Assembly (NCBI GenBank): GCA_951406725.2
Contig: OX597820.1
Location: forward strand, 25,234,001-25,298,000
Source of the DNA: Octopus vulgaris
Lineage: Eukaryota
Direction of reading: 5' to 3'
DNA: 64,000 nucleotides
Shown: piece by piece, positions 50,801 through 56,800 of the stretch
Layout: every line of letters starts with the position of its first letter
Numbering within the stretch: position 1 is the first letter of the stretch
Program-made: the position numbers and the translations under genes
Notes under the pieces: model-generated
The model's database searches: none
The model's input: the letters and a program-made list of their open reading frames with translations, nothing else
What the model was told of the DNA's origin: nothing

Positions 50801-53800
50801 ACACAGGGATTAAGTTGATTACATCGACCACAGTGCGTAACTGGTACTTAATTTATCGATCCCGAAAGGATGAAAGGCAAAGTTGACCTTGGCAGAATTT
50901 GAACTCAGAACATAGTGGCAGACAAAATACCGGTAAGCATTTCACCCGGTGTGCTAATGTTTCTGCCAGCTTGTCGCATCAAGTTAGTATTCATCAAGCA
51001 AACCAATAATCAAATAAATTCCAGTTATGACAATCTCCACTTTTGTACAGGAAATCCATTGGATAAACAACAGAAGATTGACTCTCCTGGGGTAAATGAC
51101 AGATAAAGGTTTTGTGACTTCTTTGTTGGACAACCTGCACAAATGGTTCATTTGTAGTGATTAAATATTTCTGCTTTACATTAATTCACTCCTTCCATGA
51201 AATCAACGTTGCCTATACATATACATGGTGTGCTGCACATCTTGTGTCAAAGTGATCGCAAAGAATAGCAACATGAAATGAAATGTTTTTGCTCAGGAAC
51301 ACAGCACACCACCCGATCCAGGAATCGAAACCGCATCCTGGCAACCATGAACGCAACACCTTAACTACTAGGCCACACATCTGTAAGTCAAACGACCATC
51401 CTATGACTTAGTGTTTGCATGATAACAAGATTAAGGGTACTAGTATCTGTGGAACTCTCAACCACATTCTGGCAACGATGAATACAACACCTTAACTACT
51501 ATGCCACACATCTATAAATCAAACGACCATCCTATGACTTAGTGTTTGCTTGATAATGACATTAAGGGTACGAGTGTCTGCGGAATACTCAACCACATAT
51601 GAAAATAGACAATTCCATTAATAAAATGACTAGAATACTTATGGTCAACACTGATCCACACTCCATTCACTTAATTCACTCATCCAAGACTTCAGAGATA
51701 TTTCTTAAGATCTGATGTATTTTATACAAGTAAGATACTTAGCTTGACGAGTTAAAGTGAAATTGGTGTTGTGGCCAGTCTTAGTGACAGGTAAAAGGCA
51801 GCCATGTTGATGGTACATAAAAGGCATCTGTGCCAATGATATGTAAAAGACACCTGTACTGGTGATATGTAAAAGACACCCTGTGCACTCTGTAGAGTGG
51901 TTGGTGGTAGGAAGGGCATCCAGCTATAGAAGCCCAGCCAAGACAGACTGGAGGCTGGTGCAGCTTTCTAGTTTACTAGCTATAGTCAAAGCATCTAACC
52001 CATGCCAACATGGAAAATGAATGTTAAATGATAAGGATGATGTGGTACAGAAGGTCAATTCTTTGACAACTAATCTGTTTGCATGGATCAGACAGAATTA
52101 AGGCAGGTTTTGTATAGCTAGATACCCTTTTCTGTTTCCAGCATTTATTCTAATGCCTTCTGAAAGATTTGAATGCAAATATACTAGTCACTGTTGTGTA
52201 TGTCAGAAGAGAACAACTTGTTCCTTTTACAATGACAATATGCTCATAAAATACTTGACTCATTGGTGCAAGGTAGTCTGGGACAACAGTATTTTAACCT
52301 GTCTCTCATCAGCTAGAAGCACCTTGACCTTTGAGCCTAAATAAGCCACTGGCCTTGTTTATAATTTCAGCAAACGAAACTGTTTTTCTGATCAGGGCTT
52401 AGATCTGTCAACTGATAAAAAAAAAACTGACGAGAATATTAGCATTTGAATCTGCTGGAACATATTAAGAATATATCTGCAAAGCATCATCACAAATCTT
52501 TCAGTACACTGTGCAAATAACAAGTATATGACAGGCTTCCACTCACCATTTATAAGGTTTTGGCCAGCTTGGGGTTATAACACAAAATATCTGCTAAGGG
52601 TGCCACACAGTAGGGCCAAAACCAAGACCACAGAGTTGGCAAGCAACCATCATAACCATACAGCTATGCCTGTGCTTTTACACTTACAGATAATGTTTTT
52701 TACGTATTAAGTTTTCTGGAAGTTTAATTTTTAAATGTTCAATTTAGGTTAATTTAAAGTGTTATGGACTTACTTCCAAAGCTTGAACTCTTTGTCAGTA
52801 GTGATGTTGAAGACATGACAGGGCAGATGAGAGCATCCAATTTATCTTTTTGCATAGCATCAGCAAATTCTTTATCGTATTTCTGAAACATAAGAGAAGG
52901 GCTGATAATAAATGAAAATAAAAAGAATGAATAAATAAAGGTTTTGATTAAGAACAAACTGCTGGTAGTGGTGGTGATGGTTGTATGGAGGAGGAAGAGG
53001 AGGAGAAGGAGAAGAAAGAAAGAAGAAGAAGAAGGGAAGGAGGAAGAGAAGGTGTCAGTGGGGATTATGATGATGATGAAATACAATATATATATATACA
53101 TATATATGATACGGCACGTAAAATGCACCAATCCAACCGTGGCCGATGCCAGCCTCGCCTGGCACCAGTGCAGGTGGCACGTAAAAAGCACCCACTACAC
53201 TCACGGAGTGGTTGGCATTAGGAAGGGCATCCAGCTGTAGAAACATTGCCAGATAAGACCGGAGCCTGGTGCAGCCTTCTGGCTTCCCAGATCCCCGGTC
53301 GAACCGTCCAACCCATGCTAGCATGGAGAACGGACGTTAAACGATGATGATGATGATGATGATGATATATGTATATATATATATATATACATGCATATAT
53401 TATATATTGTATATTTTAATGTTTCACTTAGGCATAGCAAGACTAATAACCAGGCGTAGCACTCAGTATGCTTCAGAATAATGTTAGATGAGTATAGAGT
53501 ACAGATGAGTAGATTGTCTATATATACATACATACATACATATATATATATATATATATATAATATAATTCGAGACAAAACCACTATTTTGCAAAACAAA
53601 CAAGGAAAGACTTAATCAATACATAAAAATTTTGAATATAAAGAAATAAACCGCCACTACAATCGTTTCATGTTTTCAATGACATTCGTCAGGTGGATAT
53701 TCGATCATAAATTAAAACAGATTAGGAGATCGAATATCCACCTGACGAATGTCATTGAAGACATGAAACGATTGTAGTGGCGGTTTATTTCTTTATATTC

Positions 53801-56800
53801 AAAATTTTTATGTATTGATTAAGTCTTTCCTTGTCTGTTTTGCAAAATAGTGGTTTTGTCTCGAATTATATTATATAATATTTTACTATAAAATTGGATT
53901 TAATCCTAAATCTGATTTTTCCCTGTAAATTTGGATTTATTCCCTAATATTTATTATTATATATATATATATATATATATATATATATATATATAACTTT
54001 TCATCATCTGACACAAGATTACCTCCTGCAATGCCCCTTCCCTTCTGAAAATTAGGGTTAGGGTATTTGTCTTGCAAGTTACTTGGTGACCCTGTCAGGG
54101 TAGGTGCCATCTAAAAAGCATCCAGTCCATACTGTAAAGCGGTTGGCATTTGGAAGGGCAACCAGCTGTGAAAGCCATGCCAAAACTGACCTCATCTGTG
54201 CTTGTGCCATGTAAAAAGCACTAAGTCCATTCTGCCAAAACAGTCACATGAGACTGGTGCAGGCTTCTGCCTGGCCGGCTCCTGTCAAACCACCCCACCC
54301 ATGCCAGCATTGAAGGCAGATGTTAAATGATGACGATGATGATGATGATGATGATGATGGTGATATAGAATTTTCCCTGTTAATTTTTACAACAATATTG
54401 TTGTTGATAAAATGGGTTTCCAACTACGACACAATCAAAAATGTGAACTTGAACTAATTCTGTTAGACATAAACTGAAAGAAAACTATTTTAAAGAGACT
54501 CACTTCTTTTTCAGCAACCAATTTATATATGTCTTGATATTTTCTAGAATTAAAAGCAGAGAGAAAAATATTGAAATATTTTGTTGTCTTTTTTTATATC
54601 TTATAATAATTTAAACTACCTAAGACCATTCTTCATTGCATGAGTCCCAGCTTTACCAACTGGAAATCTTCTTCATTCCAATCCTTGTAACTTCTATCTT
54701 TCTCACTCTGTTTCTTTCTTCTACCACTTCTGGTTCACATATGAAGATCCAACCCGAATATTCTACCAGCTTTATGATCAAACTGGCCAGATCACATCAT
54801 CAAAATCTCAAATCTAAGAGATAATGAACCCTTAATTTGAAACAACGTGAATAAATAAGAATTATATTTGACTGAATAATTTAAATGCTAAAGGGTTAAC
54901 TTAGAAGATGCAAAGTTCTGTTGTCTTCTTTATTAATTTCTCTTCAATCAACTTTTCCATGAAGATGAACTCTGTCTCTCTGAAGCATTGGATATTCCAT
55001 TCTTTGCAGCAAGTTCAAGGTACTCTTTTTACCAATTTCATTAAATAATAAAAGTCTTGCCAATGCAGACCAGCATCTGTTTCCAAGGCCATCTTTACCC
55101 CATTTGAAACAACGTGAATAAATAAGAATTATATTTGACTGAATAATTTAAATGCTAAAGGGTTAACTTAGAAGATGCAAAGTTCTGTTGTCTTCTTTAT
55201 TAATTTCTCTTCAATCAACTTTTCCATGAAGATGAACTCTGTCTCTCTGAAGCATTGGATATTATTTTCCACCAAACCTTATTCACAATTTATGTTCCTA
55301 ACCCTAGATAAATGATAACTAAGTTATTTTACTAAATTCTTTGTTATATTCAAAATTAATTGAAAGAAACACAGAGCATCTCAAAATAAATGCAGTAACA
55401 AAAGGGTTAATCATGTATACCAACTTCCCACTCTTATTTTTTTTCTGAACATGTTGAATTTCAGATGCTCAAACTGCATGTCAACTGCCCCTAAACCTGT
55501 GAAGACCAAGGGCAACTGTTCAGTATGCCCCTTGAGATGGCCCTAATAGTCTGTCTATCAAAATTAAAGCTAAGGCTACGAGCTGGCAGAATCGTTAGCA
55601 TGCTGAGTACAAATGTCTTGTTTTCATAAGTTTTGAATTAAAATTTTCCACCAAACCTTATTCACAATTTATGTTCCTAACCCTAGATAAATGATAACTA
55701 AGTTATTTTACTAAATTCTTTGTTATAAAGGATATTAGTATTAAAGAGGTTACAGCAAAAGGTATCTTTCTTTAATGTTTTGCTTGTTTCTGTCATTGGA
55801 CTGTGGCCGTGCTGGGGCTCTGCCTTGAAGGGTTTAGTTGGCTGCTTATTCTATTAGTGCTTTTGCTGAACTGCTAAGTTACAAGGATGTAAACAAACCA
55901 ACATTTGTTGACAAGTGATGGTAAGGCACAAACACAAACACAACACACACATGTGTGTGTGTGTGATATATATGTATATATATATAAATGAGTAACAGTG
56001 GAGGTACAGGTGTCAATTCATTAGAGCCATTTCTAATGACTCCTTTCATTAATTAATGAAGACATTACATCATTAGAAAGAAACTGTTTTCATCAGATGA
56101 ATTCATGAACTTCAAAATAAAGGACTTTCAAAATGATTTAACACAGTTTAAAATTCACAGAGAGAAAAATATTTACAGTGATTCTGCTACTATTTCAGTT
56201 GACAATTTGGCTGTACCAGAGTAGTGTATATTTGATCAGAACAGAAATTTAGAGGTTAGTAGAGTTTTTAGGAGGGGGAAGGAATAATTGACTCCAGTGA
56301 CCCAATTATCTTTATTTTTACAAAGAGAGGAGGGCATGGCTCCATTAGTTTAAATTTATCTGTTAAGGAGTTCTGTTGTGTCTGGGGAGGATGTAAACAA
56401 ACCAACATTTGTTGACAAGTGGTGGTAAGGCACAAACACAAACACAACACACACATGTGTGTGTGTGTGATATATATGTATATATATGTATATATATGGG
56501 TCAGTGTGTGTGTGTGTGTGTGTGTGTGTGTGTGTGCTTATGCATGCATGACTGTATGTATGTATGTGTGTATGTATGTATGTATGCATGTGTGTATGTC
56601 TACATGTGTGTGTATGCATATGCATATATGTATGTATGTGTGTGCATCTGTATGTATGTATTCTGCTTATTCATGTGCTTGCATGTCTGTGTTTGTGTAT
56701 TTTTTATATATGTGTGTGATCGTGTGTTTGTATATGTATGCACCTCTGTCTCCTTGGGCGTGCATGTGTGTGTGTGTGTGTGTGCGGGAGTGCGTTTTGC

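Follow-up and report, generated by a model that had tools for sequence, protein, structure and literature searches.

The hairpin element and its place in the window

We analysed a 64,000-nt stretch of the Octopus vulgaris genome (assembly GCA_951406725.2, contig OX597820.1, positions 25,234,001 to 25,298,000 of the forward strand; hereafter the window), in which an earlier note had described a hairpin element ending at 53960. The outline of this element is real. Two arms of 150 nt each, including their AT-rich ends (53557-53706 and 53728-53877), are separated by 21 nt and differ by two mismatches, at 53599 and 53674; a one-sided tail, previously put at about 85 nt, follows the right arm, and (TA)n lies on both sides of the hairpin (Table 1). 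The 21 nt between the arms had been taken for a loop. They are present, but no loop was built: they are leftover exon 1 of the right arm and occur on that arm only. The hairpin is neither a miniature inverted-repeat transposable element (MITE) nor a separate family of short RNAs. As judged from sequence comparison, each of its arms is a pseudo-long terminal repeat (pseudo-LTR) of a Hydra-clade Penelope-like retrotransposon (PLE).

Table 1. Features of the hairpin element, in window coordinates.
Feature	Position	Strand	Remark
(TA)n target, left flank	53538..53556	.	
Left arm, inverted, tail-less	53557..53706	-	pseudo-LTR copy that starts with the final base of exon 1 and reaches the inner fixed end, about +150 in exon 2
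Left hammerhead motif, minimal type I, one stem II mismatch	53654..53696	-	predicted cut after 53658 (minus strand)
Head-to-head junction, 2-nt overlap TC fitting both arms	53705..53706	.	window sequence compared with long copies
Exon 1 remainder, last 24 nt of the parent's 27-nt exon 1, includes the 21 nt between the arms	53705..53728	+	
Exon-exon junction	53728..53729	+	site of the 1.57-kb GT-AG intron in long copies
Right arm, exon 2 part of pseudo-LTR	53729..53877	+	
Right hammerhead motif, minimal type I	53738..53780	+	predicted cut after 53776
One-sided tail, about 83 nt	53878..53960	+	
(TA)n target, right flank	53961..53995	.	

A Penelope-like parent

The parent was reached by walking upstream from copies with longer centres and then probing with a C-terminal frame of the GIY-YIG type. 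In the long elements first found, the C-terminus is of the GIY-YIG type, and an inverted arm with tail is present as in the hairpin; arm, tail and open reading frame (ORF) follow one another in four loci (L101, L102, L105, L200), and in ORF-bearing copies the tail goes on for about 58 nt before the start codon (ATG). An intact frame of 820 amino acids is present in L084, with YRDD and VYK...VYIG motifs recognised by eye and pointing to a reverse transcriptase (RT) and a GIY-YIG endonuclease. The ORF measures 2.46 kb and the repeat unit about 6 kb, including an intron and a 1.6-kb 3′ region. Pfam and PDB scans of the 820-aa ORF gave nothing significant, and Pfam was uninformative on two homologues; ESM Atlas neighbours of the protein (at 0.96-0.98) bear HTH_animal, GIY-YIG and RVT_1 in part of the members. 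A protein search returned 5 homologues among 5875 candidates, and the named relatives are from octopods only. Direct and inverted pseudo-LTRs, a one-sided tail, a hammerhead and a single ORF with RT and GIY-YIG are thus all found, which are the features by which endonuclease-bearing (EN+) PLEs are recognised. The earlier suggestion of a link to PLEs is borne out by this RT- and GIY-YIG-coding frame downstream of the same arm and tail, in an element sharing the ends of the hairpin.

The Hydra clade is described in PMC8557442 (section 11) by a DKT motif, a CxCX5C linker, the lack of CCHH, CxxC and CxH beside conserved E and N, RWK, and (TA)n targets, with elements generally <3 kb long. The L084 protein has SDKTRN (DKT), CTCRDKSKC (CxCX5C linker), CYLC (CxxC) and CRH (CxH); its GIY-YIG core contains one Cys and no CCHH, and at the RWK position it reads RIKWKA, aligned with RMRWKA of protein P0003. 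TA runs flank the element on both sides in 30/30 fetched loci, which is the insertion preference of the clade. The assignment is by motifs, and likeness to Hydra-1_Obim, the octopus Hydra family in the PMC8557442 supplement whose printed start resembles the 820-aa ORF, was judged by eye. Hydra-1_Obim is a different family, as three probes from our element gave no match in that supplement. With the Hydra-clade PLEs described there, Hydra-1_Obim included, the octopus element has in common the C-terminal GIY-YIG, DKT, CxCX5C, CxxC, CxH, (TA)n, the hammerhead and the inverted pseudo-LTR with one-sided tail. In contrast, its unit is about 6 kb instead of <3 kb, its pseudo-LTR holds an intron of 1.3-1.6 kb, its tail is about 83 nt instead of 30-40 nt, KWK stands for RWK, and most copies are intron-less minis.

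Residues about 490-590 of L084, between RT and endonuclease, are Asn/Lys-rich and variable in length, which brings to mind the inserts rich in N that PMC3846280 describes in Penelope ORFs of Adineta. Other, diverged PLE fragments with GIY-YIG lie beside or under insertions (L076, reverse of 12241-12705 in the joined C33 region; C2 region 15756-16855).

Fixed ends, variable centres

In a DNA search of the 2.8-Gb genome, the best 40 of 695 candidates were scored, and all matched across the full 400 bp with 90-100% identity. Such uniformity, together with the recurrence of some junctions, would suit a non-autonomous hairpin RNA mobilised whole by a PLE, with centres eroded later by palindrome instability; mobilisation of short hairpin RNAs as units was also what the earlier note had proposed. 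However, those 40 were chosen for their likeness to the query. An exact 43-nt hammerhead probe has 298 matches in the genome, and we took the 80 distinct loci among the first 100 matches listed as an unselected set. In this set, arms vary widely in length; 55/80 loci have two arms, while 25/80 were scored as solo within the 3-9 kb fetched (one of the 25 with a deleted partner, one a tandem). In the 29/30 fetched loci that parsed, 27 to 56 nt separate the two hammerheads.

The outer ends, on the other hand, are fixed. Arms end 3′ at about +150 or at about +235 of exon 2, solo arms end at the same two places as paired ones, and one arm has the tail while the other lacks it in 54/55 two-arm loci of the unselected set (91/92 when all fetched loci are pooled). 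The same recurrent junction carries its tail on either side (L053 versus L040 and L126; L124 versus L117) and consequently reflects separate events instead of one hairpin lineage. Moreover, no copy shows a common intact loop, and long copies share the layout. We therefore consider whole-hairpin mobilisation very improbable and largely refuted. Based on the variable centres, the solo arms and the long copies with the same inverted arm and tail, the hairpin looks as if it was made anew at each insertion, and the fallback given in the earlier note, truncated PLE ends, turns out to be the right one.

Among 45 short pairs, the arm reaching further 5′ is the tail arm in 27, the tail-less arm in 14 and neither in 4, and in three loci the tail arm starts at +137, +151 and +176. 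Simple fold-back synthesis, in which one arm is copied from the other, was rejected because it can yield neither both length directions nor non-overlapping arms.

Between the arms of L041, L043, L122, L171, L184 and L201, 100-450 bp of unrelated or flank-derived sequence is found, consistent with template jumps during joining.

Precise loss of a long intron

Long copies contain a GT-AG intron of 1.3-1.6 kb, located 9 nt before the hammerhead. The donor is AG/GTATGT or AG/GTATAT in 4/4 long loci, and acceptors read TTTTAG/ATCG, 1.57 kb downstream in C2. The window copy instead joins exon 1 directly to exon 2 at 53728/53729 and lacks both splice sites. Counted with exact 25-nt probes, intron-less junctions outnumber intron-bearing ones by 229 to 61; for the anchor arm of the 80-locus set, the numbers are 57 and 18, with 5 arms cut before the junction. 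A second subfamily (340 exact matches) has a different 27-nt exon 1 and, in five long loci, an intron of 1.27-1.31 kb with a GT donor; most of its short copies have exon 1 directly fused to exon 2. A probe aimed at an intron-less junction of a third subfamily had no match, a null that is uninformative as exon 1 differs there.

Both states of two alleles are present in intron-less as well as in intron-bearing arms. Since, in addition, loss occurred separately in two subfamilies, we infer that intron loss recurs. Loss precisely at the GT-AG ends points to passage through spliced sense RNA, and the arms would accordingly have been copied from such an RNA. Contigs from four sequencing runs, which we guess to be RNA, cover arm and tail; they are short and mix many copies, they do not extend over exon 1 or most of the intron, and they accordingly show no splice joint.

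A MITE derived from a DNA transposon with long terminal inverted repeats could also be short, palindromic, non-coding and flanked by TA. It would, however, have to account for the precise intron loss, the RT-coding parent, the one-sided tail, the variable arms and the solo copies, and its probability is negligible. The earlier note had likewise argued that the element is easily mistaken for a MITE.

Agreement of paired arms, and a proposed sense start site

Splice state was compared between the arms of head-to-head pairs that retain the junction; contigs 1 to 10 were covered, with 100 intron-less and 34 intron-bearing arms within range. In 19 pairs both arms are intron-less, in 4 both are intron-bearing, and none is mixed. 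The second subfamily, with 22 distinct loci, gave 7, 1 and 0, the rest being solo or truncated. Paired arms hence match in 31/31 cases over the two subfamilies. A 1-nt allele is concordant between the arms of 72/73 callable loci (19/92 were not callable). Substitutions, counted without the A/T tract and the ends, are arm-symmetric 25 times (92 in one arm only), whereas 1000 permutations gave 0.58 on average and never more than 5; six of the 25 lie in arms more than 150 bp apart. These results suggest that paired arms share a template.

A shared template need not be a single molecule. With the same parent and the same de novo inversion, the arms may come from two RNAs of one source locus, brought together, for instance, by a protein dimer such as the one predicted for the Anolis protein (PMC11167929), with some sources being intron-less genomic copies. 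This would cover allele concordance and, given intron-less sources, splice concordance, without strand displacement; intron-less copies retaining upstream sequence do exist (L047, L185). Against this stands the recurrence of intron loss, with both allele states in both arm types and separate loss in two subfamilies. Further, an intron-bearing source gives both RNA forms, so that some mixed pairs would be expected where 0/31 were seen. We regard the two-RNA version as doubtful.

Most intron-less arms do not reach beyond position -27; this is the A of TTC-A-CTTC, which we take to fit the initiator consensus. Exactly at -27 end 24 arms; in 12 of these, the preceding base is a G, in place of the C of long copies (binomial p 2e-4 against 17% G); 2 of the 12 follow directly after a TA run. 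The extra G is suggestive, and only that, of a copied cap. A TCACT initiator-like motif is described in PMC3846280.

The same paper put forward self-priming on an antisense template, partly because this fits intron retention, and left the question open. To act here, the published model would have to operate on already intron-less genomic copies, whose antisense transcripts would carry the junction, and palindromic junctions are what it yields. The model was, however, proposed to explain kept introns, yet most arms have none; moreover, arms stop at the proposed sense initiator, either arm may be the longer one, some pairs hardly overlap, and solo arms have the same two ends. Antisense self-priming is, in our view, very unlikely.

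Proposed twin priming on one RNA

In LINE-1 twin priming, the two ends of a target prime on one RNA, and the resulting inverted pieces are joined by short overlaps. In LINE-1, the internal site varies and nothing is duplicated, whereas in octopus both sites are fixed, and overlap of the pieces usually produces a palindrome. The hairpin consists of two head-to-head, intron-less 5′ ends (pseudo-LTRs) of a Hydra-type PLE. We propose that it was made in one integration by twin priming on one spliced sense RNA, and put the probability of this reading at roughly 0.7. The element's protein would cut both strands of the (TA)n target, and each 3′ end would prime cDNA at one of two fixed internal sites, by analogy with what was demonstrated in vitro for Anolis Poseidon (PMC11167929). 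Both cDNAs would run towards the 5′ end of the RNA, stop at variable points no further than the start site, and be joined via short overlaps. Read-through of the inner site by the tail-primed cDNA, for which strand displacement is assumed, would give a palindrome; if this cDNA stops near that site, the product would be a LINE-1-style inversion without duplication. Twin priming at two sites on one RNA would explain the fixed outer ends, one of each kind, as well as the variable centres and the shared alleles and splice state.

The twin-priming reading has consequences for the coding copies, too. Priming in the leading pseudo-LTR of the RNA would give ORF-less minis, while priming in the trailing, mostly unspliced pseudo-LTR of a read-through RNA would give ORF-bearing copies which keep the intron. 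In its general form, for which we see about even odds, the proposal reads that the inverted repeats of PLEs stem from a single capped, spliced sense RNA on which twin priming takes place at two fixed internal sites, and that "intron retention" is largely a selection effect: spliced RNA would usually be reverse-transcribed into tiny ORF-less palindromes filed as MITEs, whereas coding copies would derive from the unspliced trailing pseudo-LTR.

Several observations speak against twin priming on one spliced RNA or weaken its support. One RNA molecule is indistinguishable from two RNAs of one source locus; alleles are discordant at one locus (L008), and another (L130) has two tail-less arms. Gene conversion between arms could add symmetric substitutions, and about 15/46 junctions hold inserted or captured sequence instead of an overlap. 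Beyond the proposed start site, six arms without the intron continue upstream, and of the 12 arms with the extra G, six share one recurrent junction, in which the partner arm could have supplied the G. Splicing, cap and cleavage are all predicted from genomic sequence, and intron-less genomic copies such as L047 and L185 could be sources, even via antisense RNA. Finally, an intron-less junction upstream of the ORF was found at 0/11 places where the tail runs towards the ORF, so that spliced mRNA was not recovered as a long copy; this absence fits coding copies made from unspliced RNA.

The hammerhead motifs

A strict type I hammerhead descriptor, run on the 64 kb, matched exactly twice, with cores at 53742-53776 (+) and 53658-53692 (-); in 50 shuffled windows, matches averaged 0.02, with a maximum of 1. 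The earlier claim of a complete type I hammerhead on each strand is correct as to two minimal motifs with a complete core. The stems, however, are short (stem I 4 bp, stem II 4-5 bp, stem III 2 bp, loop GAUU), and another fold is the minimum free energy (MFE) structure of the monomer: neither motif adopts the hammerhead as its MFE structure (z 0.02 and 0.78), the target fold reaching -5.6 compared with -8.4 kcal/mol for the MFE. An Rfam scan of the window gave no hammerhead family among 105 matches at E<=1; those found were only low-complexity miRNA, below gathering score. In seven sequences from several subfamilies, the hammerhead core and stems are kept and the loops vary; the stems being invariant, a covariation test found no compensatory change (score 0), which speaks neither for nor against the fold. 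No clear pile-up of 5′ ends was seen at the predicted cut site; a few arms end at +40 to +47, none clearly at +48.

Minimal PLE hammerheads are described as inactive as monomers and weak as dimers (PMC4209133). The two motifs lie on opposite strands, and no cis dimer is possible in one transcript. The full hairpin, with a predicted fold energy of -254 kcal/mol, would pair both motifs off. The earlier note had suggested that such masking may explain why the element is tolerated in an intron; this is hypothetical, and solo arms, too, have persisted in the genome. The hammerhead would be a passenger of the pseudo-LTR, doubled by inversion.

Comparison with published systems

The element class, inverted pseudo-LTRs, tails and twin hammerheads on opposite strands are already published. 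Poseidon PAc of Anolis (PMC11167929) likewise has two internal RT start sites bounding a tail, an AT-rich target and a hammerhead in the pseudo-LTR; both target strands are cut and extended, and the hammerhead is unneeded for insertion in vitro. The octopus start sites lie upstream of the ORF, whereas those of Anolis are inside it, and the accessible account of Poseidon PAc contains no inverted-repeat formation and no splice-state data. Penelope of D. virilis (PMC2377424, PMC4209133) likewise has a start site and a 5′ UTR (untranslated region) intron in the pseudo-LTR, the intron ending by hammerhead helix I, as well as large inverted terminal repeats; spliced and unspliced RNA both exist. Its genomic copies are described as keeping the 75-bp intron, whereas about 4/5 of the junction-bearing octopus arms are without the 1.57-kb intron. 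Truncated PLEs of Schistosoma (PMC4209133) similarly bear dual minimal hammerheads on opposite strands, 100-700 bp apart; they are mentioned there in one sentence, in which the parent is not mapped and neither an end rule nor the splice state is given.

Animal non-LTR retrozymes (bioRxiv 10.64898/2026.07.22.740005) are likewise non-coding, with a type I hammerhead, and derive from PLE pseudo-LTRs. They are defined as head-to-tail tandems, whereas the octopus element is head-to-head or solo (80-locus set) and a direct piece of an autonomous element. A tandem does occur at L199:450-1150 (G000:C6:72318950-72319650), where a 69-bp unit comprising the splice acceptor and the whole hammerhead is repeated in both inverted arms, in 2 and 3 copies; we regard it as a retrozyme-like array born inside a PLE pseudo-LTR. 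At L252-L264 (G000:C5:119297500-119300950), an 85-bp satellite of about 40 units, derived from the tail end and the pre-ORF leader, lies between an inverted arm and the end of a tail.

Intron retention in PLEs has been described (PMC2377424, PMC3681739), and the origin of their inverted repeats and kept introns is stated as open (PMC8557442, PMC3846280). In our literature search, made without most subscription papers, neither twin priming in PLEs nor inverted pseudo-LTR copies that are mostly spliced were found. The splice-state evidence was thus not found in print, and the new part is mechanistic evidence, not the hairpin. A long intron beside the inverted part serves as a natural label of strand and molecule: most inserted ends having apparently passed through spliced sense RNA, and arms apparently sharing a template, this argues against antisense self-priming. 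Hundreds of palindromes per subfamily that look like MITEs are accordingly by-products of a retrotransposon, and they may be sources of long double-stranded RNA.

Other inverted elements and neighbouring sequences

The earlier note had named six further elements of the window (4285, 20948, 24110, 30791, 36032, 46992) as unrelated sequences with one architecture. By blastn, the seven are essentially unrelated, apart from one 25-nt match. A relaxed hammerhead core is present in 24110 (one strand) and in 46992 (both strands, with poor stems I/III), and none was found in 4285, 20948, 30791 and 36032. Genome-wide searches were made for two of them; the 20948 and 30791 families have fixed outer ends, a one-sided tail and a variable centre. 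A common architecture thus holds for at least these two families, but not all seven share the twin-hammerhead layout.

Members of the 20948 family show variable inverted arms and partial tandems, and 10/20 fetched loci have a type I hammerhead further upstream, which is absent from the window copy. The latter (20944-21290; L228-L247) is truncated, and its family yielded about 2500 candidates in the search; in longer copies, which have a type I hammerhead, stem III is palindromic, and inspection by eye shows paired changes in several stems. The 30791 family (window 30791-31070; L208-L227) has a 32-nt tail and a TA target, with no hammerhead core in 20/20. The element at 46992-47685 is a larger inverted one.

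The hairpin had been placed in an intron of a host gene. No upstream exon of such a gene was identified, and the intron location is thus putative. Exon-like stretches at 50344-50454 (-) and about 52760-52870 (-) weakly resemble the C-terminal part of amidase/FAAH, the former as a chain match with a best E of 0.018. LINE-type reverse transcriptase frames, recognised by eye, lie at 48382-49872 (-) and 58611-60368 (-); they encode 496 and 585 aa and are unrelated to the hairpin.

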